DNA from: a phage
DNA: 64,000 nt
Strand: one strand, 5' to 3'
Sequence record: PV357171.2
Shown: in pieces, positions 22,573 to 63,860 of the stretch
How positions within the stretch are numbered: position 1 is the first letter of the stretch
Layout: the number at the start of each line of letters is the position of its first letter
Translations under genes and position numbers: made by a program
Notes under the pieces: model-generated
Seen by the model: the letters and a program-made list of their open reading frames with translations, nothing else
Database searches by the model: none
What the model was told of the DNA's origin: nothing

Positions 22573-22602
22573 ATTATACTAGATTTCGAGAGAATTTAGC
22601 AA
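22573..22602 (-). promoter_or_regulatory. early promoter (TTGCTA, 18 bp, TATAAT)
   Basis: Reverse complement gives TTGCTAAAT...TATAATATATACATAAATT matching the window-wide early promoter consensus. Confidence 0.65.
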
Positions 22603-22673
22603 CTAAAATTTTTATTTTTCTGCTTCGGACTTTCTTATCAATCCGAAACTTTCTCTCTCAAATTTATGTATAT

Positions 22674-22702
22674 ATTATACATCATTTATGAGCTGTTGCC
22701 AA
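22674..22702 (-). promoter_or_regulatory. early promoter, second copy (TTGGCA, 17 bp, TATAAT), overlapping 3' end of helicase gene
   Basis: Same -10 and downstream ATAAATTTGAGAGAG cassette about 100 bp upstream of the first copy. Confidence 0.55.
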
Positions 22703-24038
22703 ATGCAATTTTAGCTAATTGAACTGCTTTCTCCGGAGTCATGGTAATAGTTTTCCACCCGTTGTTACGATATACTGCCATACGTCCAGAAGCCTGTCTT
22801 AGTCCAGTACCACCTTTCATAATTAGATCTACAACAATAGGGTCGAGTTTACCCTCGACAATACGTTGAACACGTCCTGCAAGCTGTTCAATAAGAGATT
22901 CATTATTAATAAGACTTCCCATTATTAAACAAGATAGCTCATTAAGGGAAATACCTTCAGAGAAGATACTCTGAGCTGCTGCAAGTACACAAGGTCCACC
23001 TTTTGCTATATCTTCCTGGATTTTTAATCGGTCATCCAAGTGGGTTGCCCCTATAATTTCATATGTTGTAACACCACGCTGTGTAAGAGCTTCTAGTACT
23101 GTTTGGATTAACTCTGTTCTATCACTTACAATGAGTACTTTATGTCCCATATTCACGTATAAATGTGCCAGGTTTATAATGGTCTCTCGATATTCAGGAT
23201 GGTTGTACACATCATTAGCACGTAACGCCCATGGTACGTTTTGGTTTCCTGATAATTCAACAGGCACGGAGTACCTATGGATTGTAGGTGCAACAGTATT
23301 ATTAACCGGCGGACTAAATATCTTATATCCAAAGAAATCTTTGAACATAACTTGTAGACCATCTTTACGTTTTAATGTTCCAGATAGTCCAATCTTATAG
23401 CGAGCACATGATATTTCTAGGAAGTTAGTGAAAGTTGTAGCCACACAATGGTGAACTTCATCAACTATAACAGTACCGAATACTTTAGAAAGATTATTCG
23501 CATGTTTATTCACTGTTTGAATATTACTGACCACAATTGGTGGATCAATATTGTATTTCCCAGAACCTATGATACCCGGTTCAAACCCAAACCATTTACG
23601 AACTTCTGCCGCCCACATTTCACGAATAGATGTGTTAGTACAAATTACTAAAGTTTTCTGGCCAAATTTATACGCAAGTGCAAGGGCTAGGATAGTTTTA
23701 CCAAATCCAGGTTTACCATTAATAATACAGGTATCATCGCATTCTTCGTATATTGGAAGCTGATCTTCTTCACGCAGTTTGAACTTAGGTTTTGGTATAT
23801 CTACCGGAGCTAGTGTGCGTTTATCAACTAATTCGTATTTTACTCCTTTAGCATCTAGTAAGTCTAGACGTGTAATAGGAATCCACTTAATCTCTTTGGC
23901 AACAACACCACTATTCTTATACATAATAGGGTATTTACTAGTCATTGTCTCAATGTGATAAGTAGTTTGCTTACTACAATAATCCCAAAGTTCATCATCG
24001 GGCTTGAAATAGGCTTTATTAGATATAACAACCTTCAT
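22686..24038 (-). CDS. SF2 DNA helicase (D10-like, 450 aa)
   Basis: Walker A GKPGFGKT, DEVH box (VIVDEVHH), helicase C-terminal motifs. Confidence 0.7.
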   Translation of the reverse strand: MKVVISNKAYFKPDDELWDYCSKQTTYHIETMTSKYPIMYKNSGVVAKEIKWIPITRLDLLDAKGVKYELVDKRTLAPVDIPKPKFKLREEDQLPIYEECDDTCIINGKPGFGKTILALALAYKFGQKTLVICTNTSIREMWAAEVRKWFGFEPGIIGSGKYNIDPPIVVSNIQTVNKHANNLSKVFGTVIVDEVHHCVATTFTNFLEISCARYKIGLSGTLKRKDGLQVMFKDFFGYKIFSPPVNNTVAPTIHRYSVPVELSGNQNVPWALRANDVYNHPEYRETIINLAHLYVNMGHKVLIVSDRTELIQTVLEALTQRGVTTYEIIGATHLDDRLKIQEDIAKGGPCVLAAAQSIFSEGISLNELSCLIMGSLINNESLIEQLAGRVQRIVEGKLDPIVVDLIMKGGTGLRQASGRMAVYRNNGWKTITMTPEKAVQLAKIAFGNSS

Positions 24039-24532
24039 AATTTTATTCTAAGTCTAGGAATTTCAGGCTCCTCTTGATGGACTTGATAAATAACAGGGCT
24101 ATTATTTACCAGAATATAGCTTATATAAGCTGGAACATAGGATAATACAAATGGATAAGGGACTTTAGCCACATAGCATTGGTATTTTCCGTTATAAATT
24201 CTAGCTGAATGCAAAACTTTAGAGGTGACAACATCATAGAACGTAGTTTTCTTCCAGTTAATAAGATTTCCATCAGAATCTATAAATTGGCTACGCTTTG
24301 ACCCAACTAATTGAGACAACATTGATATTCTGCCCCTAATAGGATAGAGCTTGTAGGGTAATTCCTTCCGTTTCTCAAATAGAATAAGCCTACGTTGAGA
24401 AAACGTGCCAGGCAACTTCCTGTTATCTAGCACATATTTATTATACCTTGTTGTAATTACGGAATAATCACCTTCTTGCTCAATTGATACAAACGCCCGT
24501 AAAGCATATACGGGCAATTTGAAATCAAGCAC
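24035..24532 (-). CDS. hypothetical protein
   Basis: 165-aa ORF translationally coupled between polymerase and helicase genes. Confidence 0.4.
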   Translation of the reverse strand: MLDFKLPVYALRAFVSIEQEGDYSVITTRYNKYVLDNRKLPGTFSQRRLILFEKRKELPYKLYPIRGRISMLSQLVGSKRSQFIDSDGNLINWKKTTFYDVVTSKVLHSARIYNGKYQCYVAKVPYPFVLSYVPAYISYILVNNSPVIYQVHQEEPEIPRLRIKL

Positions 24533-27092
24533 CGAGAATCCTTCTCACGTTATCCAAATCTTTACATACAGCAATAAACTTATCATCCTTGTATTTGCTA
24601 TGATCTGGATGCTCTTTATCCATTGCAGCTAGTTTCTTATACTCGAATTCTGCATCAAGTAATACACCCTTGACATAACGAGTATATTCATCATCATCAA
24701 TACAAGCGATTGATGGATGCTGCTTCTTCATCTTACCACAGGAGTAGTCACGAGAACCTCCAGCCTCAGAATCAGAATCAATACCAATCGGACAGCCAGG
24801 AATACTGATACCACGGTCTTTCTGAATATTACGAATCAGGATTTCATTGTATTGGTCGATCAAATCCTCACGAACAATAGCAACTACGGAGTCATGAACC
24901 AGCATAACAATCTTCATCTCGTGTTCTAAGCCAAGAGAAATGATCTCATTATCTGCATCTACAGCACCTAAAAGGAGACTATCAGAAGAAGCAGACTGAA
25001 TGATTGCGTTAAATCCAGAACGAATTTCTTCACCCTGAACGCCACGGTCTTCGGAGTGGATATTATGCAGACGACGTTTACGACCAAAGTGACTATAGAT
25101 AAATCCATGATTCTTGATCTGATCGTGGCACTTATCAATCCAACGCTTAAGCTGTGGGAATTGACCAAAGTAAGTCTCAATGTACTCTTTAGCATCTGCA
25201 ACAGTACATTCAACAAACGGTTCCCCCGTTTTGGCTGCTTGTTCGAGCAATGCTTCGTTAACAGAATGTGCTACTTTAGCCGGGCCAGAACCGTACAAAA
25301 TACCAAAGGTAATTGCCTTAGCTGCCTGACGCAGAGCTGGGAACAGCTTCTTAACATCACGAGGTTCACATTGCAATTTAAATACCATGTGGGCGATGTT
25401 AGAGTGGAAGTCAGGGTATTTATCAGGTTCATTTCTCATGTTGATAAATACTTGTTGCATATTTCTATCACCAGATAGAACAGCAGCATAATAAACTTCC
25501 GCAGTTGTTAAGTCCCATGCGATTACACGGTATCCAGGTGGTGCAACTACACAACCCTTAATGATAGATTCATCACGAGGTAACTGTTGCAGGTTCAGTT
25601 TACCAGAAGAACTCAGACGACCAGAAGTAGTCATATGCTCATGGAAGCCAGTACGAATGCAACCATCAGCATCAATGCTCAGAAGAATCTTCTCAACGTA
25701 AGTAGAGATCAGCTTAGTCAGCTTACGAATCTCTAGTAGGGTCTTAGCAATTGGATGCTGCGTAGACAATTCGTTCAGAGCTTCTGCATCTGTAGAGTCC
25801 GCTCCAGTATCTGTCAATTTACCTGTTGGAGTTAACCCAACATAATCAAACAGAAGAACACGTAGCTGCTTAACAGAGTTTGGGTTAAACGCTTCGTTCT
25901 GGTCTTTCTCTAGCTGAACGACTTCTGGATAAGTATACAGTTTCTCACGAGCTTTATTCAGATTATGGGTTAACTGGTACTGAGCTTCTTTTAAACGATC
26001 AATAGAAATAGGTACACCACGATCCTCAACACGTTGCAGGAACACGCAACCAGGCATTAGAACATCATAATACAGACTGCAAAGTTTTTCATTCTTCTCA
26101 ATTTTTGGTAAGAAGAAGTTGTGCAAACGTATGGTGGCATCGGTATCTTTTGCAGCGTAAGGCCACATAATATCAAACGGAATTAAATCATAGGTGAAAT
26201 CTTCTTTCTTGATTTTATGTGCTTTGCAATAATCCTCCTTGAACTTATCTAGTTCAAAATCATAGTCACCCATATCGGTATACTTCATTGCTAGAGATTT
26301 CAAGCCATGAGTACCACGACGCTCATCTAGAACATAATGCTGCAACATTGTATCATGGAGCCTGCGTTCTTTATGTGCTTTATCAAAAGTAAGTCCCAGA
26401 TGGTACTTATAAAAGTGCATATCAAACTTCAGGTTGTGAAAAACAATAGTGTGGTTTTCACTATCCAGAATTTTCTGGAGATAATATACTGCAACCTCTG
26501 TGAGACAATCAGAATCGATATATACACCCTGATATTCTTGGTGAGACATAGAAACACCAAGCAGATAACCATCTCGACAGTATAGTGCTGAGGTTTCGGA
26601 GTCAAATGCTACAGGTCCGATAACCATATTATACACCATCTTGATATATTCTTCCGCCTCGTCAGGGTCAGTAATAGGACGGTAATCACCAGCTTTTGCA
26701 ATCTTCTCACGACCATTGATAATATCGTGGATATTCTCTACTGTTGCATCGAAAACTGGTTTCATTTCAGGTTTAAAGTGTAACTGGGCTGGGCTGATGC
26801 TCGCAATCCAGTTAGCATATCCATTATGCTCTACACGTTTACCAGTATAGTCACCAATGCCTTTCTTACCAGCAAAGTACAGGAAAGGTTCGGCACCTAC
26901 CAGTATAACAAAATCATAATCATTCGGATCAAATGGGTTTTCCGGAGTCCCGATAGTAATATGCTTTTTGAGCAAACGACCGGATAACTTCTCATTACAC
27001 ATATGGAATACATCAACTTCCTCGCCGTATAGCTGGAAATGTTTATCGTAACGAGTGTTATTTAGAGCTTTATCAACTACTGCGATTTTCAA
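24525..27092 (-). CDS. DNA polymerase, family A, with 3'-5' exonuclease domain (855 aa)
   Basis: Exo I motif FDSETSAL, polymerase motif B (K...FGILYGSG) and motif C (VHDS); start codon is TTG at 27092 preceded by GAGGA. Confidence 0.9.
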   Translation of the reverse strand: MKIAVVDKALNNTRYDKHFQLYGEEVDVFHMCNEKLSGRLLKKHITIGTPENPFDPNDYDFVILVGAEPFLYFAGKKGIGDYTGKRVEHNGYANWIASISPAQLHFKPEMKPVFDATVENIHDIINGREKIAKAGDYRPITDPDEAEEYIKMVYNMVIGPVAFDSETSALYCRDGYLLGVSMSHQEYQGVYIDSDCLTEVAVYYLQKILDSENHTIVFHNLKFDMHFYKYHLGLTFDKAHKERRLHDTMLQHYVLDERRGTHGLKSLAMKYTDMGDYDFELDKFKEDYCKAHKIKKEDFTYDLIPFDIMWPYAAKDTDATIRLHNFFLPKIEKNEKLCSLYYDVLMPGCVFLQRVEDRGVPISIDRLKEAQYQLTHNLNKAREKLYTYPEVVQLEKDQNEAFNPNSVKQLRVLLFDYVGLTPTGKLTDTGADSTDAEALNELSTQHPIAKTLLEIRKLTKLISTYVEKILLSIDADGCIRTGFHEHMTTSGRLSSSGKLNLQQLPRDESIIKGCVVAPPGYRVIAWDLTTAEVYYAAVLSGDRNMQQVFINMRNEPDKYPDFHSNIAHMVFKLQCEPRDVKKLFPALRQAAKAITFGILYGSGPAKVAHSVNEALLEQAAKTGEPFVECTVADAKEYIETYFGQFPQLKRWIDKCHDQIKNHGFIYSHFGRKRRLHNIHSEDRGVQGEEIRSGFNAIIQSASSDSLLLGAVDADNEIISLGLEHEMKIVMLVHDSVVAIVREDLIDQYNEILIRNIQKDRGISIPGCPIGIDSDSEAGGSRDYSCGKMKKQHPSIACIDDDEYTRYVKGVLLDAEFEYKKLAAMDKEHPDHSKYKDDKFIAVCKDLDNVRRILGA

Positions 27093-27153
27093 ATTTAATC
27101 TCCTCTTGGTAAGTAAGTATAACTTCAGTGTTTCTTCTCTAACTTACCAATAT

Positions 27154-27183
27154 ATTATACCAAATCTTTAAGCGATTCAGCAA
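27154..27183 (-). promoter_or_regulatory. early promoter upstream of DNA polymerase gene
   Basis: Reverse complement TTGCTGAAT, 18 bp, TATAATATATT. Confidence 0.65.
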
Positions 27184-29596: not shown

Positions 29597-30364
29597 TTAT
29601 TCAGCAGCCGCAGCTTTTGCATCCAGTTTAGCACGCTTAGCGGCACCATCATAGTCCTTAGCAACCAGACCACGACGAGACAGCATAGATTTAACACCGC
29701 GCTCAGATTTACCAGTTTTCTCAGCGATCTCAGCAACAGTCATGTTAACCAGATCCAGACCTTCTAACAGATCTTCACGAGTTTTAGCACTCGAGGTTTC
29801 CTGTACCGGCATAGCGGCGATACGACCTTCACGAAGCAGACTCAGAGCTTTACCACGGATCTGCTTGATATTACGACCGAAGTGAGCAGCGATAGCTTCA
29901 ATAGTAGCACCAGCAACAACCTGATTAACAAAATCAGTTTCTTCATCCGGAGTGAAGGAACGAACAGCAGCAGCTTTTTCAGTTGGTTTAACAGAAGCGG
30001 TCATTTCCAGACTCAGGATCTTACCCTGTACCTGCTTAGCACCGAACTGACCACCAGCTACAGCAGCAGCGATTTCAGCATAGGTATACTGACCAGCATG
30101 AGCGTTCAGGAAATCAACCAGTTCAGCTTCCTGCTCAGGAGTCCACGGAGATTTCTGCACTTCGTTAGCTTTCTGTACTTCAAAACCTTCTTTACGCAGT
30201 TTAGAGCCAACAGAGCGGGCAGTAACATCTTTGCCAGTTTCAGCAGCCAGTTCAGCAGCAATAGCAGCTACTTGTTCTTGAGAGATTACAGCAACACCCA
30301 GAGCAGTGGCTTTTGCTTTCAGAGACTCGGTTACACCTTCTACGTTCCAGTTCAGTTTAGACAT
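29597..30364 (-). CDS. putative DNA-binding protein (D5-like position)
   Basis: 255-aa Ala/Lys-rich ORF with internally repeated helix-rich segments; call by synteny. Confidence 0.4.
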   Translation of the reverse strand: MSKLNWNVEGVTESLKAKATALGVAVISQEQVAAIAAELAAETGKDVTARSVGSKLRKEGFEVQKANEVQKSPWTPEQEAELVDFLNAHAGQYTYAEIAAAVAGGQFGAKQVQGKILSLEMTASVKPTEKAAAVRSFTPDEETDFVNQVVAGATIEAIAAHFGRNIKQIRGKALSLLREGRIAAMPVQETSSAKTREDLLEGLDLVNMTVAEIAEKTGKSERGVKSMLSRRGLVAKDYDGAAKRAKLDAKAAAAE

Positions 30365-31136
30365 TATTATTTTTCTCCAATAGTTCTTTAATCGACAGGA
30401 TTTCTATCCCATTCGTTTCGGCTTTCTTATAAGATGAGGAAGAACGTTTTGATTCATCCTCACAGATCAGGTATTTGACGTCTTTGGTAACGGATTTCTT
30501 AACCGTATATCCTAGACCTTCTAAATAGTTTGTTGCATCCGTTCTATTTGCAAAATCTTGCAAAGATCCGGTAATACATACCGTTATTCCGTTTGGTTGG
30601 GCTACTAGACCATCAGTGATGATGACCTCAGCTTTAGCACCTTTAATACCAGTTGTGAATTTCCACGGTAATTCGATAACATCCTTGCCTTGTGGGGAAT
30701 TTAGCCAGGCTTTATAATTTTCTCCAGCCTTGCCGTCAGCCTTCACATCATGGAAGCTAGTGCAATTTTGGGATAATTTCTTTGCTGCAACCTCTCCGAT
30801 TAGAGGGATTCCTAAAGAACCGAGAACTGAACCAAAGTCAATGTCTCCGCGAACTTTAGTATTTAATTCGCTAATTAACTTAGCGGCAACCTTGCTACCC
30901 ACGGCTCTAACCAAATCTTCTTCGGTTAGGTAAAATAGTTCTGAAATCTTCGTCAGCTCCAGCTTCTCAATAGTTTTTGGACCAAAGCCCTTTAACTTCA
31001 TTTTTGAACAGAAGTTCTCAATTAACTTACTTGATTGCGCTGGACAGTTGGACTTATTCCGACAAAATAATTGTCCGTTGACAAGATCTAGCTTAGAACC
31101 ACAAGAGGGACATTGTGTTGGAATTTCGATTTTCAT
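30357..31136 (-). CDS. NAD-dependent DNA ligase, C-terminal subunit (Zn-finger and HhH domains)
   Basis: CPSCGSKL...FCRN...C Zn-finger typical of LigA plus helix-hairpin-helix region; ATG at 31136 one codon inside the TTG of the ORF track. Confidence 0.7.
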   Translation of the reverse strand: MKIEIPTQCPSCGSKLDLVNGQLFCRNKSNCPAQSSKLIENFCSKMKLKGFGPKTIEKLELTKISELFYLTEEDLVRAVGSKVAAKLISELNTKVRGDIDFGSVLGSLGIPLIGEVAAKKLSQNCTSFHDVKADGKAGENYKAWLNSPQGKDVIELPWKFTTGIKGAKAEVIITDGLVAQPNGITVCITGSLQDFANRTDATNYLEGLGYTVKKSVTKDVKYLICEDESKRSSSSYKKAETNGIEILSIKELLEKNNNV

Positions 31137-31166
31137 CAAATTTCTTCCTTATCAATTTATATAAAT

Positions 31167-31195
31167 ATTATAGCAAGTATTTAAGCATTTAGCAA
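31167..31195 (-). promoter_or_regulatory. early promoter for ligase C-terminal subunit
   Basis: Reverse complement TTGCTAAATGC, 17 bp, TATAATATTTATATAAATT. Confidence 0.65.
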
Positions 31196-31259: not shown

Positions 31260-31288
31260 AGTATATACCTAAGCGGCGAAAATGTCAA
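31260..31288 (-). promoter_or_regulatory. consensus sigma70 promoter (TTGACA, 17 bp, TATACT)
   Basis: Reverse complement TTGACATTTTCGCCGCTTAGGTATATACT in the spacer between the ligase halves. Confidence 0.5.
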
Positions 31289-32588: not shown

Positions 32589-32618
32589 TTTGCAACCCTC
32601 TCATTAATTTATATAAAT

Positions 32619-32647
32619 ATTATATAACAAAACTGAGTTGAAAGCAA
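32619..32647 (-). promoter_or_regulatory. early promoter
   Basis: Reverse complement TTGCTT, 17 bp, TATAATATTTATATAAATT. Confidence 0.6.
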
Positions 32648-32660: not shown

Positions 32661-32689
32661 GAAAAAGCCAAGAACTAGGCATTCTTGGC
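32661..32689 (-). terminator. rho-independent terminator (minus strand)
   Basis: 8-bp stem GCCAAGAA / TTCTTGGC plus T-run on minus strand. Confidence 0.55.
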
Positions 32690-32983
32690 TTTGAGTTCTT
32701 CAGCTCGTTTCTGTACTTCATGTAAAACCTCAGATTCGCTAAGAATCTGTGTAAACGCATAGAAAAGCTGTGATGTTGTTTCTAGAGTGTAAGGAAAAGA
32801 GAAGCCAGATTTCGTTGGAAACCATTCATCATTAATATCAAGAAGCCAGTAACGAATACCCATGTATAGATTCCCACGAAATTCAGATACTGTTAATCTT
32901 ACTTGTTCTCCCTCCTTCTCCCAAAGTATGATGGACTGGTCATCAACGTGTCCTTCATAGTTTTGATTTACCTGTTCGCTCAT
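32675..32983 (-). CDS. hypothetical protein
   Basis: 102-aa ORF. Confidence 0.4.
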   Translation of the reverse strand: MSEQVNQNYEGHVDDQSIILWEKEGEQVRLTVSEFRGNLYMGIRYWLLDINDEWFPTKSGFSFPYTLETTSQLFYAFTQILSESEVLHEVQKRAEELKAKNA

Positions 32984-33366: not shown

Positions 33367-33777
33367 TTACTTAGTGATAGCTCGGATTGCTTCTGCCAGA
33401 TGAGCAGCCGCTTTACCGGTCAGTTTGTCGATAATTGCATCATCCAGAAAATCTGGTGCTAAGCCAGCGTCAGAGAATGCTGCGCGAAGGTCGGCATGGG
33501 CTTGAGCTTTGGAGGTACGAGAACCACCGGAAGCTTTTTCTCCAGTAGATGCGCTAGATTTAGAAGTAGAACCAGCAGCTTTCTTGATATACAAACCTGC
33601 TTTAGTCAGCTTCATACGAAAACCGTTCGGAGTTACACCATTTTCCTGGGCAATTTCGCTAACAATTTCCATGCTAACACCCGGACGTTCATCCTCTGGG
33701 AATTGCTCCATACGAGCAACATATTCGGAAGACATTTTTTCAAACAGTTCATCAGTCCACTGAGTTGGAGTAGTCAT
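33367..33777 (-). CDS. hypothetical protein
   Basis: 136-aa ORF with own promoter. Confidence 0.4.
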   Translation of the reverse strand: MTTPTQWTDELFEKMSSEYVARMEQFPEDERPGVSMEIVSEIAQENGVTPNGFRMKLTKAGLYIKKAAGSTSKSSASTGEKASGGSRTSKAQAHADLRAAFSDAGLAPDFLDDAIIDKLTGKAAAHLAEAIRAITK

Positions 33778-33834
33778 ATTTTATATTTCCTTAATTAAGA
33801 ATTAAACAGAATAGTTCTTTCAAACTATGAGAAT

Positions 33835-33863
33835 ATTATATCAAGAATTATAGGATTAAGCAA
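33835..33863 (-). promoter_or_regulatory. early promoter
   Basis: Reverse complement TTGCTT, 17 bp, TATAAT. Confidence 0.6.
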
Positions 33864-33883: not shown

Positions 33884-34144
33884 CTACACATCTAGCTCAA
33901 CAATCTCCCAATCATCCGCTAGAGCTTCGTCTAGAGTTAATTCAACCTCTTCATCACTAGGCAGCAGCGTAGTATCTGAAGGCATCCACACATATTGGCG
34001 TACAGTATTGCTGTCTACATCAAATTTCAATAGTACAGTATACTCTTTATTATTTTCCCAGCTATCCCGCTGGAGATACTTTACATCTCCATCTTTAAGC
34101 AAGTCTGTTAGCTTACTCACGGCGTTTTCCTTTTTCTTTATCAA
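33884..34144 (-). CDS. hypothetical protein
   Basis: 86-aa acidic ORF. Confidence 0.35.
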   Translation of the reverse strand: MIKKKENAVSKLTDLLKDGDVKYLQRDSWENNKEYTVLLKFDVDSNTVRQYVWMPSDTTLLPSDEEVELTLDEALADDWEIVELDV

Positions 34145-34817: not shown

Positions 34818-34848
34818 ATTTAAACTCCTCTCTCAAATTTATGAATCT

Positions 34849-34877
34849 ATTATACAGAAAAATTTTCCTGAAAGCAA
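34849..34877 (-). promoter_or_regulatory. early promoter
   Basis: Reverse complement TTGCTT, 17 bp, TATAATAGATTCATAAATTTGAGAGAGGAG. Confidence 0.6.
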
Positions 34878-38346: not shown

Positions 38347-38843
38347 AACAATACTCCTGTGTTGGAAATGAAATAAGTTTTCTTTAGGACTATTCAGAAA
38401 GAATAGAACAACTGTTACTGTCAATTTCTCAACAAATTAATCGCAAATACTGAAGTGGGGTGGCAACTTCCACTTTCACGCTACACTGCCGCTTCACTAT
38501 ACCGCACAAATCCTTGAGGATGGCCGCTAAGCCAGATTTGCTCACCTAATGCTTCATGTACTAGCTCATACTAGATGCAGTATACCTTACGTCATCACTT
38601 CTCAGAGTTTTTCACTCTTCCCGTCTCACTTCACAACCACCTCACACTAGGTTGCTTCGAGGCCTTACCAGGGTTCCTACGGGGTGTAGATCGCTAAGTA
38701 TTCTATTAACTATTTGTTTAAAAACTAACACGTAACAGTTAAAACAACCCTTAATGGGGCAGCCTAACTGTTCCGTATCGCGGATTGTAAACAAGAAAAA
38801 TTAGCAAAATCAGTTTTTACTAATGTCTCTCAATTATGGGAAT

Positions 38844-38873
38844 ATTATACTATAAAATAATACTCCCTTGCAA
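38844..38873 (-). promoter_or_regulatory. early promoter directing transcription into ORF-free region 38430-38836
   Basis: Reverse complement TTGCAA, 18 bp, TATAATATTCCCATAATTGAGAGA. Confidence 0.55.
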
Positions 38874-38881
38874 ATGAAATT

Positions 38882-42462: not shown

Positions 42463-42490
42463 AGCTTTCTCCTCTCAAATTTATAAATCA

Positions 42491-42519
42491 ATTATACATA
42501 AATTTTTGGCTGAAAGCAA
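42491..42519 (-). promoter_or_regulatory. early promoter
   Basis: Reverse complement TTGCTT, 17 bp, TATAATTGATTTATAAATTTGAGAGGAG. Confidence 0.6.
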
Positions 42520-45268: not shown

Positions 45269-45297
45269 TTGCTTTTTGCTGTAAACCTTGTTATAAT
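45269..45297 (+). promoter_or_regulatory. early promoter (TTGCTT, 17 bp, TATAAT)
   Basis: Divergent promoter region between minus- and plus-strand early gene blocks. Confidence 0.6.
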
Positions 45298-45373
45298 ATA
45301 TTTGTAAGTTGATAAACAAGATCTCTTTGTTGATCCTCTGTTAGAAGCGAAGTACACTATAGGAGTGTTATTT

Positions 45374-46370: not shown

Positions 46371-46379
46371 TATACAGGG

Positions 46380-46409: not shown

Positions 46410-46424
46410 ATCAGAAAATTTTAT

Positions 46425-48822: not shown

Positions 48823-48830
48823 TAAAAACA

Positions 48831-48858
48831 AGGAGATCTTCGGGTCTCCTTTTTCTTT
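48831..48858 (+). terminator. rho-independent terminator with UUCG tetraloop
   Basis: AGGAGATC-TTCG-GGTCTCCT followed by TTTTCTTT. Confidence 0.7.
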
Positions 48859-48868: not shown

Positions 48869-48897
48869 TTGCTAATCGCTACCTGATTTGCTATAAT
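48869..48897 (+). promoter_or_regulatory. early promoter for HNH gene between nrdA and nrdB
   Basis: TTGCTA, 17 bp, TATAAT. Confidence 0.6.
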
Positions 48898-48903
48898 ATC
48901 TAT

Positions 48904-49401
48904 ATGAAATTAACACAGAGTAGATTAAAAGAGCTAATCTCCTATGACCCTGAAACTGGCGAATTTACCTGGCTCCCAAGAAAAACTTTAGCAAAGCATT
49001 TATGGAATGCTAAAGCAGGAACCTACGATAAATTAGGGTATCTTCGTATAAAAGTTGAAGGAGTTCAATATTTAGCTCATCGCCTAGCCTTCTTGTATAT
49101 GACTGGAGAAATACCGGAAGGAAAAATCGACCATAAAGATACTAATCCGTCTAATTGTGCCTGGGATAATCTCCGTGAAGCCACGAGTTCTCAAAATTCT
49201 ATGAACTCGTGTGCAAGATCGGATAACCAGCTTGGAATGAAAAATATTCGTGTAAAAGGCACTTCATTTCAGGTTAGGATAGGCAAAGACGGCAAATCTT
49301 ATACAAAAACTTTTAAAACCCTAGAAGAAGCTATAGAATGGAGAGACACCAAACTACTAGAACTTCATGGGGACTTTGCAAACAACGGAGAAGCTAAATG
49401 A
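48904..49401 (+). CDS. HNH homing endonuclease inserted between nrdA and nrdB
   Basis: GYLRIKVEGVQYLAHRLAFLYMTGEIPEGKIDHKDTNPSNCAWDNLRE motif. Confidence 0.7.
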   Translation: MKLTQSRLKELISYDPETGEFTWLPRKTLAKHLWNAKAGTYDKLGYLRIKVEGVQYLAHRLAFLYMTGEIPEGKIDHKDTNPSNCAWDNLREATSSQNSMNSCARSDNQLGMKNIRVKGTSFQVRIGKDGKSYTKTFKTLEEAIEWRDTKLLELHGDFANNGEAK

Positions 49402-51944: not shown

Positions 51945-51973
51945 TTGCTTGATGTCTAAATTTATAATATAAT
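51945..51973 (+). promoter_or_regulatory. early promoter
   Basis: TTGCTT, 17 bp, TATAAT. Confidence 0.55.
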
Positions 51974-52006
51974 ATTTCCTATATGTATATTATAGGGGAT
52001 TTACTT

Positions 52007-52561
52007 ATGATTATAAAAGAAGGATGGACAAAAGAGTCCGCACGAGCTAGATTTATATACAACCCTGATACAGGGGAGATTTTTAACAGAGTAAATAGCG
52101 GACGTGCTAGAAAAGGAGAATTAGCCGGGTATATTGATAAATCTACGGGGTATGTTAGACTAGTATTATCTGGTAAAAGGATTAAAGGACATCAGCTAGC
52201 CTTCTTATATATGGAAGGCTATATACCTGATACCATAGACCATATTAATAGAATAAAATCAGATAATAAATGGACTAATCTAAGGGAATCATCGGCTCAA
52301 GAAAATGCTAGAAATATTAGGGCAAGAAGTAAATCGGGCTATTTAGGTGTTGGTTGGTATAAGCCAACCCAAAACTGGTGTGTTTATACTAAGGATAAAG
52401 ATGGAGTCCAAGTTAACGGAGGCTACTTTGCATACAAAGAACTAGAGTTAGCAGTTCAAAAGGCTAATGAACTTCGCTTACAGTTACATGGAGAAAACGC
52501 TGTTATAGAAGCTTTTGATTCCACAAAACCACTTCCCACATTAGAGGATCTTAATAAATGA
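52007..52561 (+). CDS. HNH homing endonuclease
   Basis: GYVRLVLSGKRIKGHQLAFLYMEGYIPDTIDHINRIKSDNKWTNLRE; ATG at 52007. Confidence 0.7.
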   Translation: MIIKEGWTKESARARFIYNPDTGEIFNRVNSGRARKGELAGYIDKSTGYVRLVLSGKRIKGHQLAFLYMEGYIPDTIDHINRIKSDNKWTNLRESSAQENARNIRARSKSGYLGVGWYKPTQNWCVYTKDKDGVQVNGGYFAYKELELAVQKANELRLQLHGENAVIEAFDSTKPLPTLEDLNK

Positions 52562-53054: not shown

Positions 53055-53083
53055 TTGCTTAAAGCCCTCTAATTTAGTATAAT
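53055..53083 (+). promoter_or_regulatory. early promoter with palindrome arm in its spacer
   Basis: TTGCTT, 17 bp, TATAAT; spacer AAAGCCCTC is the inverted repeat of GAGGGCTTT at 53102-53110. Confidence 0.6.
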
Positions 53084-53110
53084 ATTCGTATTGAAAGTGA
53101 GGAGGGCTTT

Positions 53111-53405: not shown

Positions 53406-53434
53406 TTGCTAAACGCTTCAAATTCTTGTATAAT
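53406..53434 (+). promoter_or_regulatory. early promoter
   Basis: TTGCTA, 17 bp, TATAATATACTTCATAAATT. Confidence 0.65.
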
Positions 53435-53472
53435 ATACTTCATAAATTGATAAACAAAAAGGAAAACAAATA

Positions 53473-53988
53473 ATGGCTAAGCAGAAAAACGCAAAAACTC
53501 AAGCAGCTCCGGCAGTTAAAACTTTCCCGAAGACTGAGGCTAATCGCAAAGCTCGGCTGGAACGTCACCTGCGTAAGCATCCTACCGATGCTCAGGCTGC
53601 GCAAGCACTGAATAATCCGGCTCCGATTCGTAAGAAGCCTAAAGCTAAAAATGCCACCCGTAAATCCTACAAAATGGTTATGTATGTAGAAAATTACGGC
53701 CACAAATCTGTCCCAGTTTCCCTGAGCTTCAACGCTGGAGCTGAATTGTTCTCTCGTAATGGTATGTCTATGAAAGACTATGAGAAGGCAGTTAACCAGA
53801 AGCGTAAACCAACAGCAGATGTATTGCGTGATACTCGTGGACAGTTTGGTTCTGTTAAGCCAAATATCTTTGGCGTAGAGTATAGTAAAGATAATGTTCG
53901 TGCTCTGTGTTACGGTGTAGGCATTAAGTTCACGGGTGATTCTGCTCGTAAATCTGCTAAACCAGCTCGTAAACGTAAAGCGAAGTAA
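53473..53988 (+). CDS. hypothetical basic protein
   Basis: 171-aa Lys/Arg/Ala-rich ORF. Confidence 0.4.
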   Translation: MAKQKNAKTQAAPAVKTFPKTEANRKARLERHLRKHPTDAQAAQALNNPAPIRKKPKAKNATRKSYKMVMYVENYGHKSVPVSLSFNAGAELFSRNGMSMKDYEKAVNQKRKPTADVLRDTRGQFGSVKPNIFGVEYSKDNVRALCYGVGIKFTGDSARKSAKPARKRKAK

Positions 53989-55278: not shown

Positions 55279-55307
55279 TTGCTTCCGGCTCCAAAATTCT
55301 GTATAAT
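55279..55307 (+). promoter_or_regulatory. early promoter
   Basis: TTGCTT, 17 bp, TATAATATATTCATAAATTTGAGA. Confidence 0.65.
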
Positions 55308-55347
55308 ATATTCATAAATTTGAGAAAACAATAAAAGGAAAACAAAT

Positions 55348-55582: not shown

Positions 55583-56221
55583 ATGACTACTCGTATTTCT
55601 AAAACTCGCGATCTGGCAACTATCAAATCTCTGGAAGCTAAAATCCGTAAAGCTACTGAACAACAGCTTCTGATCGCTGTTGGTGAAGGTAAGGATAAAA
55701 ATAAGGTTGTAGTTGGCGCTGCAATCGAAGTAGACGATCTGTCTGCTCGTATTAAGGCAGATTTCCAATCTCTCCTAGATATGATGTCCCAGCGTGATCG
55801 TATCAAAGCTGCTCTGATTAAGAGCAATGCGGAAACAGTAGTTGAGATTGGTTCTCGTAAAATGACTGTTGCAGAAGCAATTGAAGCTAAGCGTTCTATG
55901 GAGCTTAAAGCTCAGTTGCTGGCTAATATGCGTAAGCAGTTCCATGCCGCTACGGTTAAGTTTAATACGCAGAAAGCACAGTTTGATGCTAAATATGAGC
56001 GTTTGCAGGATAGCATGGCTACCCGCGATAAGAAAACTTCCGAAGATGAAGTTAAAATGCAGCTCAACCTGCTGGAACTCAAGAATACTCCATTCTTGAT
56101 TGATCCGCTGGAGCTGGAGAAGCTGATCAAGCAGCACGACGAAGAATATCAGGACTTTGCAACTAATGTTGACTTTGTTCTGTCTGAGTCTAATGCCTCT
56201 ACTTTCATTGAAGTAGAGTAA
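55583..56221 (+). CDS. hypothetical protein
   Basis: 212-aa ORF. Confidence 0.4.
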   Translation: MTTRISKTRDLATIKSLEAKIRKATEQQLLIAVGEGKDKNKVVVGAAIEVDDLSARIKADFQSLLDMMSQRDRIKAALIKSNAETVVEIGSRKMTVAEAIEAKRSMELKAQLLANMRKQFHAATVKFNTQKAQFDAKYERLQDSMATRDKKTSEDEVKMQLNLLELKNTPFLIDPLELEKLIKQHDEEYQDFATNVDFVLSESNASTFIEVE

Positions 56222-56604: not shown

Positions 56605-56633
56605 TTGCTAATCTACTAAATTATATGTATAAT
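56605..56633 (+). promoter_or_regulatory. early promoter
   Basis: TTGCTA, 17 bp, TATAATATATTT. Confidence 0.65.
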
Positions 56634-56663
56634 ATATTTTTAAATTGATGAAACGAGGCTATT

Positions 56664-57485
56664 ATGGGTAAATTACAAAAACAAATACTACCACATATAG
56701 ATTATATTCGAGAAATTATAGAGTATAATCCTTATACTGGTAAATTATTTTATAAGCCTAATAAATACAAGAATAAAACTTGGCACACCCTATATGCTGG
56801 GAGAGAAATATGTAGTAAGAACTCTGATGGGTATATCAGAGTTAGTTTGCTCTTAGATAATAAACCCACAATTATTTATGGACACCGAATAGCGTGGTTG
56901 CTCCATTATGGTGAAGAGCCTCCTTATATGATCGACCATATAAATACCATACCGTGGGATAACAGAATTGTTAATCTAAGAGAGACAAATTTTAAGTTAA
57001 ATAGGATTAATACTAATAAAACCGTAGGTGTAGAACTCCTCCCCGAGGGTTTTGTGTATAGCATTACATTAGGTGGAAAGTTTTTCGTATCTCCTGGCTT
57101 CACCACTTTCGAACAAGCTAAAGGGGAAAGAGAAAAACTAGTAAATGGTTTATGTAATGCAGAAATTGGGAAGCAGACCAATATTCTAATAGACGATGTT
57201 AGAGATCTACCTGAAATGTCCATTATTTGTCGTACAGTTATAGGTGCGCTGGAACTATCAGATATGTTTAGTTTTACTGGTTCCTACCTATTTATGGACT
57301 CAGATCTAGGAGACCCAGAAGTACAAGGAAAAGACTTATTAGATTATATACTCTTTTTAGGTCAAAGACCTTTGAAAGTAGTTCTAGTAACATCCAACCC
57401 TGTTGACGCAGAGTACATGAGAGGTACTCTTACGTCTTATGGTTATCGAGAAAATCCCAATAGGTTAGAATATGACCTATTTTAA
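56664..57485 (+). CDS. HNH homing endonuclease with C-terminal extension
   Basis: GYIRVSLLLDNKPTIIYGHRIAWLLHYGEEPPYMIDHINTIPWDNRIVNLRE. Confidence 0.65.
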   Translation: MGKLQKQILPHIDYIREIIEYNPYTGKLFYKPNKYKNKTWHTLYAGREICSKNSDGYIRVSLLLDNKPTIIYGHRIAWLLHYGEEPPYMIDHINTIPWDNRIVNLRETNFKLNRINTNKTVGVELLPEGFVYSITLGGKFFVSPGFTTFEQAKGEREKLVNGLCNAEIGKQTNILIDDVRDLPEMSIICRTVIGALELSDMFSFTGSYLFMDSDLGDPEVQGKDLLDYILFLGQRPLKVVLVTSNPVDAEYMRGTLTSYGYRENPNRLEYDLF

Positions 57486-57955: not shown

Positions 57956-57984
57956 TTGCTTAAATACTTAAACTTCTGTATAAT
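57956..57984 (+). promoter_or_regulatory. early promoter
   Basis: TTGCTT, 17 bp, TATAATACTTTCATAAATTAATGAGAGGAAG. Confidence 0.65.
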
Positions 57985-58015
57985 ACTTTCATAAATTAAT
58001 GAGAGGAAGCGAAAT

Positions 58016-58637: not shown

Positions 58638-58666
58638 TTGCTAAATGCTTATAAATTCTGTATAAT
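58638..58666 (+). promoter_or_regulatory. early promoter driving ORF-free RNA region
   Basis: TTGCTA, 17 bp, TATAATATATTCATAAATT. Confidence 0.65.
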
Positions 58667-59463
58667 ATATTCATAAATTAGGGAACAGCGAGCCGATTAC
58701 GCTGAGTGCAGAATCCCAACCGGAGCGCATTGAATAGAGTCGGTGGGTTAGTTGTAAAACTAGTACACAGGGGGCGGCAATCCCGGTTAGTGGCTAGAAC
58801 GTGTAAAATGAGGCGTCTGAAACCTCTCCCCTAAACTCTTCTCTAATTTATAAATAGTGGGGTGTGGAAATCACTTATGTAGTAACACTGCCGTCCTAGT
58901 ATAATTGGTATTATCAAGCCGTAACTGGTGGAAGATGTAGGTTCGAATCCTACGGTCGGTAAGAACTGGATAACTGATGCTTTTAACGTAAAAGCTTCCG
59001 AGGTTAGTTGCGCACTGCCTAAACCACGCGGTAGTTGGTTCCAGACTAACCAACCAGTCTGCTGAATAGTTTTATTACGATTTAACTATGCCCAGGCTAA
59101 AGAAGAACTTTAGAAGGTATTCTAGGATAGTGAAGTTCTTTCTCCATATCGGAGTAGTTTTTCAAGCTATCCACAAAGTGGGAAATGCTGACATGAGAGA
59201 TGTCACTAATGGTGCACAATAGCACAGGTAATTCGCGATAACCCCTGTTGAGTAGCAGCAAAAGGCGGGAAGTCATGACCCCAAGCCTAACCGAGTCCTC
59301 AATATACCGCAGGACATAACCACTAAGTCCCCCTGACTTAAACTGGAAAATAATAGACGTTACTGTATTTTGTCTTGAAATACTTAATGAGTGAGACTTA
59401 TGACTCTCCCGGTATCGTCTGTATTTTTAAGAGTTTTTACGAGAGTTCTTAAAAATACTTAAA

Positions 59464-59535
59464 CGGGGTGTAGTCTAAGGGAGAGGCAGGAGTCTTCTAA
59501 ATTCCTTTATGCAGGTTCGAATCCTGTCACCTCGG
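59464..59535 (+). tRNA. tRNA-Arg (anticodon UCU)
   Basis: Hand-folded cloverleaf: acceptor CGGGGTG / CACCTCG, D-stem GTCT / AGGC, anticodon stem GGAGT / ATTCC with loop CTTCTAA, T-arm GCAGG-TTCGAAT-CCTGT, CCA encoded. Confidence 0.75.
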
Positions 59536-59572
59536 CCAATTTTATTAACTGTAGCTAAAACAAAGGAAATAT

Positions 59573-60725: not shown

Positions 60726-60754
60726 TTGCTTGAATGCTAAATTCTCTGTATAAT
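60726..60754 (+). promoter_or_regulatory. early promoter
   Basis: TTGCTT, 17 bp, TATAATATATTTATAAATTTGAGAGAGG. Confidence 0.65.
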
Positions 60755-60784
60755 ATATTTATAAATTTGAGAGAGGAATCAAAT

Positions 60785-61840
60785 ATGATTAAGACTGGTC
60801 TAGTAATTGGTAAGTTCGCACCATTAACGCGTGGTCATATTAACCTAATAAACACAGCAGCAACTATGTGTGAACGAGTTATTGTTGTAGTTAGTCATGA
60901 TAATCGTTGGCTGGATAAGCAGAACACACGTGATCAGGAAGTATTACAGTTAAAGAATCGACTTCGTTGGTTAGAACAAACTTACGCGGATATTGAGCAC
61001 ATTTCGGTAGAGTACATTATTGAAGATGATATTCCTGAATATCCGAATGGTTGGCCGGAATATGCTAGAATCCTTAATGAAAATTACGGACATTTGCCTG
61101 AGATCACCGTTTTCTCTAGCGAACTAGACTATGATGCAGAATATAAGAAATATCTGCCGAAGTTTGGTCATTATATTGTAGATTCTGATCGGACTCGTGT
61201 TCCAATCTCAGCTACAATGATTCGTAATGATCTTATGAAGTATTGGGAGTTTCTTCCTAGCTTAGTTCGTAAAGATTACGTGCGTAAGGTTGTAATCATT
61301 GGGACTGAAAGCTCGGGAAAGACTACTTTAACAAAATACCTTGCGAAGCTATACAACACTTCGTGGGTAGAAGAATATGGCCGAACGTATTGTGAAGTTG
61401 ATCTAGTTGGTAACGAAAATCTACTTACCAGTGAAGATTACAGTAAAATTGCGTTCAGACACAAAGAGCTAGAGTTTGAAGCAGAACGTACTGCAAATAA
61501 GATCATGTTTGTGGATACAAATGCTTTTATTACTGAGTTCTACCACAGACTTTATGAACATAGTAAGAACCCTGTGGTTACAGCAATTGCAAAAGTAGAA
61601 CATTACGATTTAGTAATTGTTCTAGCGCCTACTGTCAAGTGGGTAGATGATGATTTACGTATTAACTCCGATCGTTCAATTACTTCTGAACTGTTCGAGC
61701 AGATGAAGAAAGAATTTCCAAATCAGTTCCCTGAAGGGCGTACTGTTTACATCGACTCTCCGGACTACAAAGTTCGTATGGACGAAGCAGTAAACGCAGT
61801 AGACTGGCTGATTCATCACTTTAACGTTGGAGAGTTTTAA
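60785..61840 (+). CDS. nadR: NadR-like bifunctional NMN adenylyltransferase / ribosylnicotinamide kinase
   Basis: N-terminal GKFAPLTRGH (nucleotidyltransferase H/T-x-G-H) and C-terminal P-loop IGTESSGKTTL; ATG at 60785 after GAGAGG. Confidence 0.6.
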   Translation: MIKTGLVIGKFAPLTRGHINLINTAATMCERVIVVVSHDNRWLDKQNTRDQEVLQLKNRLRWLEQTYADIEHISVEYIIEDDIPEYPNGWPEYARILNENYGHLPEITVFSSELDYDAEYKKYLPKFGHYIVDSDRTRVPISATMIRNDLMKYWEFLPSLVRKDYVRKVVIIGTESSGKTTLTKYLAKLYNTSWVEEYGRTYCEVDLVGNENLLTSEDYSKIAFRHKELEFEAERTANKIMFVDTNAFITEFYHRLYEHSKNPVVTAIAKVEHYDLVIVLAPTVKWVDDDLRINSDRSITSELFEQMKKEFPNQFPEGRTVYIDSPDYKVRMDEAVNAVDWLIHHFNVGEF

Positions 61841-61841
61841 T

Positions 61842-62519
61842 ATGACTAACTATCTCGTAAATGACTTTAAAAACTGGAAACCTCTGGAATATCTGTGGCT
61901 GCTCATAGCGGTTGTCTTCATTAGTTTAGCAAACTATAATGGTACAGCTCTAGATTGGGCTACTGCAATAACCAATGTGGTTTGTGTTATTCTGGTTGCA
62001 AAAGGACGTGTTTCCAACTATATTTGGGGCTTAGTGGGTGTTCTTACATATGGTATTACAGCTTTAAACGCAGATCTTTATGGTAACGCTGCACTAAACC
62101 TGCTATACTACGTTCCTATGCAGTTTTATGGAATGTACTTATGGCATAAAAATAAACCAAGTAATCTGCCAGACGTTCCAACTAAGGTTCTGACTAAAGC
62201 TCAGGCTTTATTAACTCTTGGGATTCTAGCAGTAGCTACTCTAGGCTATGGCAGCTTCCTCGCTACCACAGCAGATCCGTTCCCAATGCTCGATGCATTT
62301 ACTGCGGTTGGTAGTGTAATTGCTATGTGGCTTATGGTCAAGCAGTATGCTGAACAATGGCTAATCTGGATTGCCATTAATATTGGTACTGTATACATTT
62401 GGTTTGTAACTGCTCAGTCTACAGGTGCTTCTTATGCAATCCTAGCAATGTGGCTGGTATTCTTTGGTAACTCTGTACTTGGAGCCTATAAAGGGTACTT
62501 TGTACGCGTTAACAAATAA
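61842..62519 (+). CDS. pnuC: PnuC-like nicotinamide riboside transporter
   Basis: About 226 aa, multiple predicted TM helices, Trp-rich motifs; immediately after NadR-like gene; ATG at 61842 after GGAGAG. Confidence 0.55.
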   Translation: MTNYLVNDFKNWKPLEYLWLLIAVVFISLANYNGTALDWATAITNVVCVILVAKGRVSNYIWGLVGVLTYGITALNADLYGNAALNLLYYVPMQFYGMYLWHKNKPSNLPDVPTKVLTKAQALLTLGILAVATLGYGSFLATTADPFPMLDAFTAVGSVIAMWLMVKQYAEQWLIWIAINIGTVYIWFVTAQSTGASYAILAMWLVFFGNSVLGAYKGYFVRVNK

Positions 62520-62566: not shown

Positions 62567-62595
62567 TTGCTAAATGCCGAGATTTTCTGTATAAT
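62567..62595 (+). promoter_or_regulatory. early promoter driving tRNA pair
   Basis: TTGCTA, 17 bp, TATAATATATTTATAAATT. Confidence 0.65.
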
Positions 62596-62609
62596 ATATT
62601 TATAAATTC

Positions 62610-63457: not shown

Positions 63458-63580
63458 ATGAAATCTATTAAGAAAGCACTGCGTAAATTTATGTATTGTC
63501 GTTTTCATAGCATCAAGGCTTCAACTAATGGTACTACTTACGATCGCTATGATCCTAAGTTTGGCTTACATTCTAAATAA
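63458..63580 (+). CDS. small hypothetical protein (40 aa), below ORF-track threshold
   Basis: ATG 6 nt after AAGGAAG directly after tRNA-Leu. Confidence 0.3.
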   Translation: MKSIKKALRKFMYCRFHSIKASTNGTTYDRYDPKFGLHSK

Positions 63581-63593
63581 CTGGAGAAAACAA

Positions 63594-63800
63594 ATGGCTA
63601 ATCCTGAAATTACGGCACAACGCTTTATGCTGAAAGGAATTATTGCTGAAGCAGGCATGACAGAAGAAGTTGCAGATTTTCAAAAGCAATTCCTCAATAT
63701 TCTCACTCAAGCCAAAGAGCTAGGAGAGAAAGAACATGGCGCGGCTATTATGGCAATCACATTGGTTGGGCTTGATCTGGCTGAAGAATCAGGAGTTTAA
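63594..63800 (+). CDS. hypothetical protein
   Basis: 68-aa ORF from ATG at 63594 after GGAGA; ORF track extends upstream across a hydrophobic stretch. Confidence 0.4.
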   Translation: MANPEITAQRFMLKGIIAEAGMTEEVADFQKQFLNILTQAKELGEKEHGAAIMAITLVGLDLAEESGV

Positions 63801-63830
63801 CTCCTCCAAGCAGAAATTTTAAAAATGTAC

Positions 63831-63860
63831 TTGCTTTTTACTTAAGATTTCTGCTATAAT
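63831..63860 (+). promoter_or_regulatory. early promoter
   Basis: TTGCTT, 18 bp, TATAAT. Confidence 0.6.

Follow-up and report, generated by a model that had tools for sequence, protein, structure and literature searches.

Early promoters in the T5-like segment

Twenty-one promoter sites of one family were located in sequence record PV357171.2 (the window, a stretch of 64 000 nt from a phage). They are very probably the early-class promoters of a T5-like phage, dependent on sigma-70 and recognized by host RNA polymerase in its unmodified form. In phage T5 such promoters had been mapped and given names before, which makes the finding an ordinary one. It carries little weight as a discovery; its use lies in annotation, with exact coordinates and T5 names for the early promoters at 21 sites. 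From the 1980s onwards, T5 early promoters were cloned, sequenced and given names, and they have served in expression vectors (among them P_N25); the groups of Bujard, Hsu and Severinov have worked on them.

The window is a segment of a Tequintavirus (T5-like) genome with 93–96% identity to several sequenced relatives. Its aligned parts are ~88–95% identical to T5. The region from 16.3 to 64 kb is collinear with 81.4–25.8 kb of T5 and syntenic with the T5 early genes. All 21 sites lie within this early-region span, upstream of early genes or tRNA genes, and no family site was found by the scan in positions 1–22,000, including the late region (1–16 kb).

The window was scanned with a two-block PWM. 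Twenty-one sites between 22.5 and 63.9 kb scored 24–60, two others scored ~12 and nothing followed. No score above 10 was obtained with the same PWM in five Markov-random windows. The pattern TTGCTW-N16-19-TATAAT occurred 18 times in the window (0.42 expected) and TATAATnTATTCATAAATT, with up to three mismatches allowed, 14 times (0.38 expected). Generic sigma-70 consensus scans gave 61 and 52 matches for 60.7 and 56.2 expected, which is the background level and provides no discrimination; the family-specific model alone therefore separates signal from background. The motif search proposed in the preliminary description was thus run over the window, and family-specific matches were far above chance. 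A pattern scan of IMG/VR placed the motif mostly on contigs of ~104–128 kb (the size of T5-like genomes), often in several copies.

About 24 sites, 13 on the plus and 11 on the minus strand, had been announced in the preliminary description. The family is real and its coordinates were right, the outermost sites being 22573 and 63860 in both cases, but the counts are 21 sites, 12 plus and 9 minus. Eleven minus-strand sites are reached only by adding two sigma-70 promoters of a different type, listed last below.

Minus strand
22560..22602: P31B orthologue, serving the T5.125-like ORF 22181-22465 and D11; 18-bp spacer, exact ATAAATT box
22661..22702: P31A orthologue in tandem with P31B; -35 TTGGCA, exact box
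27141..27183: Ppol orthologue, serving DNA polymerase (24525-27092); TTGCTG, 18-bp spacer, degenerate box GTAAGTT
31154..31195: P-K28a orthologue; exact box; serves ligB (30357-31139)
32606..32647: early promoter, unnamed T5 feature 65284-65358; exact box; serves a 90-aa ORF and ligA
33822..33863: P-N26 orthologue; box ATAGTTT (2 mismatches); serves D3 (33367-33777)
34836..34877: P-N25 orthologue; T5-identical from the -35 hexamer to +19; serves D2 (34113-34817)
38831..38873: weak family member; TTGCAA, 18-bp spacer, ATAATTG; serves a T5.108-like replication gene (35557-38424)
42478..42519: early promoter, T5 feature 55708-55782; exact box

Plus strand
45269..45310: phoH early promoter, T5 feature 53638-53712; degenerate box GTAAGTT
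48869..48910: resident nrdB promoter (hegH promoter in the T5 annotation); no box
51945..51986: family-like -35/-10; no box; inside an HNH cassette between thy and rnh
53055..53096: early promoter of a T5.090-like ORF, T5 feature 46337-46411; box absent
53406..53448: P-H207 orthologue; exact box, shifted by 1 nt
55279..55320: early promoter, T5 feature 44393-44467; exact box
56605..56646: early promoter of the intein-containing ORF 56664-57485, T5 feature 43067-43141; box TTAAATT
57956..57997: P-D/E33 orthologue; exact box
58638..58679: P16-17 orthologue, driving the non-coding counterpart of T5 RNAX; exact box
60726..60767: P15a orthologue, serving the NadR-like/PnuC cassette 60782-62519; exact box, then GAGAGAGG
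62567..62608: P15b orthologue; exact box; tRNA-Ser starts at +9 (62610)
63831..63873: P15c orthologue; 18-bp spacer, box ATAAGTT

Sigma-70 promoters outside the family
31260-31288, minus strand: P-K28b orthologue; TTGACA..TATACT
45068-45096, minus strand: TTGACT..TATAAT

Fourteen of the 21 sites correspond to 75-bp promoter features named in the T5 record AY543070, and the P-N25 core is identical in both phages. Their earlier assignment to the classical strong early promoters of T5 is thereby upheld. Genome positions, downstream genes and architecture are those of T5, and orthologous sites are nearly or fully identical. Some differences were noted in this separate isolate: NadR/PnuC replaces T5.076 behind P15a, the HNH gene behind the nrdB promoter is a different one, and the promoter at 38844 is remodelled. 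In the T5 early region itself, 30 of the 38 annotated promoter features fit the family core, 21 of them with the box as well. Eight other annotated T5 promoters were checked (pre-early, late, and the T5.134 and lpp promoters at the flanks) and only that of lpp fits both core and box. Seven related genomes were compared, and 19 of the 21 sites were matched to orthologous sequence in one or more of them; none was matched in these genomes for sites 51973 and 62595. The promoters are presumed to be active in the PV357171.2 phage itself. In T5, early kinetics in vivo are reported for Ppol and P15A, and primer-extension products were obtained in vivo from only 11 of the 19 in-vitro promoters tested (PMC7472727).

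Promoter architecture and conservation

The A/T-rich upstream tract, the TTGCT(A/T)-like -35, the 17–18-bp spacer and TATAAT were seen across the 21 sites, as first described. The -10 hexamer is invariant (21/21). The -35 hexamer is exactly TTGCT(A/T) in 18 sites and TTGCTG, TTGGCA or TTGCAA in the other three; the spacer is 17 bp, or 18 bp in four sites. Directly 5' of the -35, the upstream tract has the consensus AAAAATTT(N)A(C/T) and a high information content. The discriminator follows the A/T-rich pattern AT(A/T)T(T/A)(C/T), with A at -6 in 20/21 sites, T at -5 in 17/21, A or T at -4 in 20/21 and T at -3 in 17/21. ATATT was reported in the discriminator of all known T5 early promoters (PMC7472727). 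It is exact in only 8 of the 21 family sites, and is thus a consensus and not a rule.

The copies had been called near-identical. This was overstated, given a mean pairwise identity between paralogues of 62% over -50..+8 (range 47–78%). Exact runs of at least 23 bp were found in only two paralogue pairs. Between orthologous sites of the seven related genomes, mismatch rates were 0% (-10), 1.0% (-35), 1.1% (+1..+7), 0.8% (+8..+20) and 6.1% (spacer), these rates being taken from ungapped alignments and biased downwards at alignment ends. Purifying selection is strong on the -35, the -10 and +1..+20 relative to the spacer. The box at +1..+7 is in this sense an early-class signature under purifying selection.

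Several favourable elements are stacked at each site: the upstream tract (~-55 to -38), probably an UP element, then the -35, the spacer, TATAAT and the A/T-rich discriminator. T7 A1 and lambda PL are likewise used by the unmodified host holoenzyme, their output being set by post-binding steps. The T5 early class differs from them in its non-consensus -35 (TTGCTT), its perfect -10 and its class-wide conserved start region.

The box downstream of the -10

A conserved box downstream of the -10 had been described as general. It is real and limited to the family: with at most one mismatch, it followed none of the 86 other TATAAT occurrences in the window. It is less general than claimed, being exact in 12/21 sites, present with at most one mismatch in 14/21, and absent or degenerate in the other seven (27154, 33835, 38844, 45297, 48897, 51973 and 53083). 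The box is therefore dispensable for membership and, presumably, for activity.

The oligonucleotide TATAATAGATTCAT covers -12 to +2 of N25 (PMC7472727). Its numbering fixes +1 at the A of cATAAATT, and the P-N25 orthologue at 34836-34877 has this A as its +1. With a start at this position, the box makes up the first seven transcribed positions (+1 to +7) and opens the initial transcribed sequence (ITS). Changing the N25 ITS (+3 to +20) lowers productive RNA about tenfold (PMC12464699, PMC10911233). In the working proposed here, transcription would start at the A of cATAAATT and the ITS would, as in P_N25, set the efficiency with which the polymerase escapes from a very tightly bound promoter. 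This function of the ITS was demonstrated for P_N25 only; by analogy, the box may act in escape at the other sites. In protein-coding units, the ITS would then be followed by a Shine-Dalgarno sequence of the GAGAGG type and by the start codon.

The run of the box into GAGAGG and ATG, also part of the preliminary description, is present at about half of the sites. Where present, GAGAGG and ATG come 2–10 nt after the box, and +8..+20 is conserved as much as the box. Both observations would suit an RNA-level role, in which the box, being an A/U-rich 5' leader, would improve the loading of ribosomes or make early mRNAs more stable. We consider such a role very improbable. The exact box lies 6 nt from the -10 in 11 of 12 cases, but its spacing from the start codon is variable. 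It is also kept in the P15b orthologue, where there is neither mRNA nor ribosome-binding site and the mature 5' end of tRNA-Ser is at +9, and before the untranslated RNAX-like region. This argues for a transcription role of the box over a translation role.

The box and the A/T-rich discriminator are limited to the early class, and they could instead be mainly a class-specific target for early shutoff by a phage factor. A factor such as the RNA polymerase-binding gpT5.026 or the DNA-binding D5 would recognize or exploit them at the early-to-late switch, a role compatible with that of promoters. The gpT5.026 protein weakens polymerase binding to -5/+2, the early ATATT discriminator was proposed as the basis of class specificity, and the switching mechanism is described as unknown (PMC7472727). 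The T5 record gives D5 a part in early-gene shutoff. However, the effects of gpT5.026 are weak in vitro (PMC7472727), and the box is missing from a third of the early sites, although these are of the same region and class as the others. Shutoff as the main role is thus regarded as possible but doubtful, and an escape function in transcription as the preferred reading. The early-to-late switch of T5 is the question nearest to these data, with the class-specific discriminator and start region as an obvious cis element, already proposed in the literature.

HNH endonuclease and tRNA genes

Four HNH_3 genes are present in the range: 34886-35344, 38882-39397, 48904-49401 and 51983-52561. Each had been credited with its own promoter copy. 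This is true for two of the four: only 48904-49401, whose ATG is at the predicted +1 of promoter 48869..48910, and 51983-52561 lie directly behind a family promoter. The gene at 38882-39397 has its own promoter of a different, TTGACA type, and 34886-35344 is not directly behind a family promoter. In ESCO30 and VAH1, the nrdA/nrdB promoter is found with no HNH gene and is used for nrdB, and other genomes have insertions of two unrelated HNH genes immediately behind TATAATAT. Since ESCO30 and VAH1 use it without HNH, this promoter is resident and was not brought by the HNH gene. The suggested comparison of related genomes thus showed that, at nrdB, promoter and HNH gene do not move together. At the 51983 HNH gene, a hairpin sequestering the ribosome-binding site was considered and set aside: its arms are compensated in ESCO30, but the folding energy is unremarkable (z = -0.35).

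For the tRNA clusters, also said to carry one copy each, the claim stands for site 62595, directly before tRNA-Ser/Met, and fails for tRNA-Leu (63356), which has none. The non-coding stretch behind 58638..58679 contains a tRNA-like element (58890-58961) and tRNA-Arg (59464-59538), the latter ~800 nt downstream of site 58666. An Rfam scan detected only tRNAs.

Promoter copies and cassette exchange

The repeats had also been put forward as recombination substrates. As such, they would be short homology linkers for cassette exchange, comparable to PeSL of T4-type phages, with HNH cassettes carrying promoter pieces. Against seven relatives, 10 of 46 unique homology breakpoints fell within -60..+35 of family starts, for 4.8% expected under a uniform null (p = 5e-5). 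Some lay inside the core, at -13 (38850 and 62589) and at -3 (48901). P15a and P15b bound the NadR-PnuC cassette and have a 23-bp exact run in common, each of the thy/rnh cassettes comes with a promoter of its own, and the HNH cassette at 38882 rewrites the upstream half of the adjoining promoter (38831..38873). However, breakpoints were found at 11 of 19 promoter-bearing and 17 of 41 promoter-less gene junctions (odds ratio 1.9, p = 0.28). Enrichment thus held in these seven genomes against uniform positions but not against gene junctions, and promoter repeats as recombination hot spots were left unproven once the null was switched from the former to the latter. Exact runs are also no longer than 13 bp in most paralogue pairs, and the nrdB promoter is merely resident. 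We consider the linker explanation unlikely. There is similarly only a small chance that early-promoter cores (~-15 to +10) double as preferred cassette crossover points, with homing-endonuclease cassettes supplying new promoter halves to maintain expression of the early genes downstream. If true, crossover at these cores would be the T5-family counterpart of the PeSL system of T4.

In T4-type phages, PeSL are composite cassettes of an early promoter and a stem-loop that mediate modular shuffling (PMC2839356, PMC4122927). The segment differs in that a promoter joined to a terminator stem-loop at variable-gene borders was found at only 3 of the 21 sites, and in the non-significant enrichment of breakpoints against gene junctions. 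It resembles PeSL in its repeated early-promoter motifs at the edges of variable genes and in some cassette boundaries within the promoter core. The three composite sites, 32619, 42491 and 48897, are fused to an upstream terminator hairpin (32664-32692, 42530-42554 and 48830-48851, respectively), the T-tract of which merges into the A/T-rich region of the promoter.

Comparison with T5-like phages

Window segments 40-60 kb and 20-44.9 kb were searched against GenBank phages using megablast. More than 550 T5-like records were matched; the best matches had 93-96% identity across 79-94% of the query sequence, the top relatives being ESCO30, ESCO40, VAH1, SP1a, Spc35 and HildyBeyeler (all Demerecviridae, genus Tequintavirus). 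Window 16.3-64 kb, the early region with replication, nucleotide-metabolism and tRNA genes, was collinear with 81.4-25.8 kb of T5 (AY543070) in reverse orientation. Window 1-16 kb was the counterpart of the late tail genes. OR847496 (Listeria phage LM 4-11-1) and MG065692 (Campylobacter phage C13) were 89-99% identical to this T5-like DNA; the host names are probably wrong, or else the isolates were contaminated.

Size and identity of the promoter family

TTGCTW-N16-19-TATAAT was matched 18 times in the window (0.42 expected), and the -10 with the downstream ATAAATT box, at up to three mismatches, 14 times (0.38 expected). A position weight matrix was built from sixteen sites with 17-bp spacers and both strands were scanned, spacers of 16-19 bp being permitted. 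Twenty-one family sites were obtained (scores 24-60; 12 plus, 9 minus). The next-ranked two scored about 12 (45068-45096, minus, TTGACT..TATAAT; 5855-5883, plus); in five Markov-random windows scores did not exceed 10. The TATAAT -10 was unchanged in 21/21 sites and the spacer was 17 bp in 17 of them and 18 bp in 4. ATAAATT was exact at 12 sites and within one mismatch at 14, beginning 6 nt past the -10 (7 nt at P-H207); it accompanied none of the 86 other TATAAT occurrences in the window.

The preliminary description had listed about 24 near-identical promoters, 13 plus and 11 minus. The family is real over the full span given there, and the end coordinates were exactly those of the outermost sites, but the count was slightly high, and a total of eleven minus sites requires the inclusion of two sigma-70 promoters of another type. 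'Near-identical' was an overstatement, as paralogues averaged only 62% identity over -50 to +8. The two non-family promoters are:
31260-31288, minus: P-K28b orthologue, sigma-70 promoter TTGACA..TATACT
45068-45096, minus: sigma-70 promoter TTGACT..TATAAT

The T5 record carries 75-bp 'promoter' features throughout the early region, many historically named. These were extracted and compared with the family sites.

Family sites in the window and their T5 counterparts
22573: P31B
22674: P31A
27154: pol promoter
31167: P-K28a
33835: P-N26
34849: P-N25, identical from the -35 hexamer to +19
45297: phoH promoter
48897: hegH/nrdB promoter
53434: P-H207
57984: P-D/E33
58666: P16-17
60754: P15a
62595: P15b
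63860: P15c

Most other family sites paired with unnamed features. The family is the classical T5 early promoter class, already annotated; the features at orthologous sites uphold the earlier recognition of strong T5 early promoters. Gentz and Bujard (1985) reportedly saw T5 promoters resemble one another around -43 and within the early transcribed sequence.

Start region

TATAATAGATTCAT spans -12 to +2 of N25 (Klimuk et al., PMC7472727), which puts +1 at the A of cATAAATT. An ATATT discriminator is reported for every T5 early promoter known to date, and Ppol and P15A of T5 show early kinetics in vivo (Klimuk et al., PMC7472727). On this +1 placement, the '(A/T)TATTC' first noticed corresponds to the discriminator and 'ATAAATT' to +1 to +7.

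Among orthologous sites in seven related genomes, the -10 had 0/738 mismatches; mismatch rates were 1.0% in the -35, 1.1% at +1 to +7, 0.8% at +8 to +20 and 6.1% in the spacer, in ungapped alignments whose ends are biased towards low mismatch. The family is real and under selection, and very probably functional. One exact box is followed by tRNA-Ser, with its 5' end at +9, and another by the non-coding counterpart of T5 RNAX; translation signals play no part at either.

In T5, 30/38 annotated early-region promoters fit the family core and 21 of these 30 also carry the box. It was absent from P-H22 and two other pre-early promoters, from the late promoters P-G25, P-J5 and oad, and from the promoter of T5.134, next to the late region; the lpp promoter alone had it among the non-early-class T5 promoters compared. 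The box is class-specific. This keeps alive the proposal, already made by Klimuk et al., that the discriminator/start region is a cis target for the early-to-late switch.

At N25, RNA polymerase binding is extremely fast and stable and promoter escape is rate-limiting; in the antiDSR variant (+3 to +20 replaced), full-length RNA is about tenfold lower (PMC12464699, PMC10911233). Thus, the conserved start region would most simply be an escape-optimised initial transcribed sequence common to the early class. A transcription-level role fits the conservation profile, the box before non-coding RNAs and the class specificity.

tRNA and HNH genes

A promoter had been attributed to each tRNA cluster and each HNH gene; both generalisations were largely wrong. 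Promoter 62595 adjoins tRNA-Ser/Met, and tRNA-Arg is about 800 nt downstream of 58666; tRNA-Leu (63356) lacks a promoter of its own. Rfam gave a tRNA match (35.5 bits; 58890-58961, plus), not called by ARAGORN, within the equivalent of the stable T5 'RNAX', between P16-17 and tRNA-Arg. Only two of the four HNH_3 genes (Pfam) in the promoter range are directly behind a family promoter:
34886-35344, minus: not directly behind
38882-39397, minus: not directly behind
48904-49401, plus: directly behind
51983-52561: directly behind

HNH 34886 is upstream of P-N25 and lacks its own promoter. The HNH 38882 cassette (38882-39397, within the region 38831-39475, minus) has its own TTGACA-N17-AATAAT promoter (39354-39382) and replaces the upstream half (UP, -35, spacer) of the next resident promoter downstream. 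This cassette, also present in VAH1, sits immediately past a terminator stem (39431-39449), the T-tract being removed.

In ESCO30 and VAH1 the nrdA/nrdB junction is HNH-free with terminator and promoter unchanged, nrdB being driven directly; T5, HildyBeyeler and phC11 have hegH, and the window and Spc35 an HNH gene unrelated to hegH. Both genes are inserted just after TATAATAT. On this comparison, the promoter is evidently resident, captured by the HNH gene rather than brought by it. Within 48897-48960 (plus), the ATG of HNH 48904-49401 coincides with the +1 predicted for the nrdB promoter. The gene has no Shine-Dalgarno sequence, and its N-terminus aligns with that of T5 hegH; its transcript may be leaderless, with low-level expression.

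At thy/rnh, the entire intergenic cassette varies among genomes, promoter included, and the promoter of the HNH version has no ATAAATT box. Within 51945-52010 (plus), an inverted repeat (CCTATA..TATAGG) spans the GGGG Shine-Dalgarno sequence of HNH 51983-52561, with the predicted start within its 5' arm; the arms are compensated in ESCO30. It resembles the translational control of T4 homing endonucleases, though its fold energy was not exceptional (z = -0.35).

Recombination and neighbouring elements

The window was aligned with seven relatives and 46 unique homology breakpoints were gathered. Ten fell within -60 to +35 of a family start site (4.8% expected, p = 5e-5, uniform null). Breakpoints occurred at 11/19 junctions with a family promoter and at 17/41 without one (odds ratio 1.9, p = 0.28), gene boundaries in general hosting them. 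Exact runs common to paralogues were mostly ≤13 bp, the longest being 27 bp (55307/58666) and 23 bp (60754/62595, flanking the NadR-PnuC cassette). The suggestion that the repeats are recombination substrates is unsupported, given mostly short runs and no significant excess at promoter-bearing junctions. A linker role comparable to that of the T4 PeSL motifs, composites of early promoter and stem-loop (PMC2839356, PMC4122927), is possible but rather unlikely, breakpoints being general at gene boundaries and the runs short.

The cassette (60782-62519, plus) comprises a NadR-like gene (cytidylyltransferase + AAA_28) and a PnuC nicotinamide-riboside transporter gene, in place of T5.076 between P15a and P15b. 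It is common in T5-like phages of Salmonella and E. coli, with 203 records matching 80% or more of the query length.

Three terminator hairpins abut family promoters, their T-tracts running into the A/T-rich upstream regions as composite terminator-promoter units:
32664-32692: abuts 32619
42530-42554: abuts 42491
48830-48851: abuts 48897

A T5orf172/DUF4379 (GIY-YIG-like) gene (44375-45046, minus; Pfam) overlaps the nrdD start. T5, HildyBeyeler and Spc35 do not have this gene, whereas the VAH1 annotation lists it as a T5orf172 domain protein; it has a TTGACT-N17-TATAAT promoter (45068-45096) outside the early family. The ORF behind promoter 56633 (56664-57485, plus) exceeds its T5 counterpart in length by about 700-780 bp, from just past the start codon; the homologous insert in HildyBeyeler is annotated as an intein. 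The orthologue of T5 late promoter P-G25 (5855-5910, plus; TTGATA-N17-TATAAT) has the same leader as T5, ATTAAAGAGGAGAAATTAACTATG, the source of the 'RBSII' ribosome-binding site in pQE/pDS vectors.
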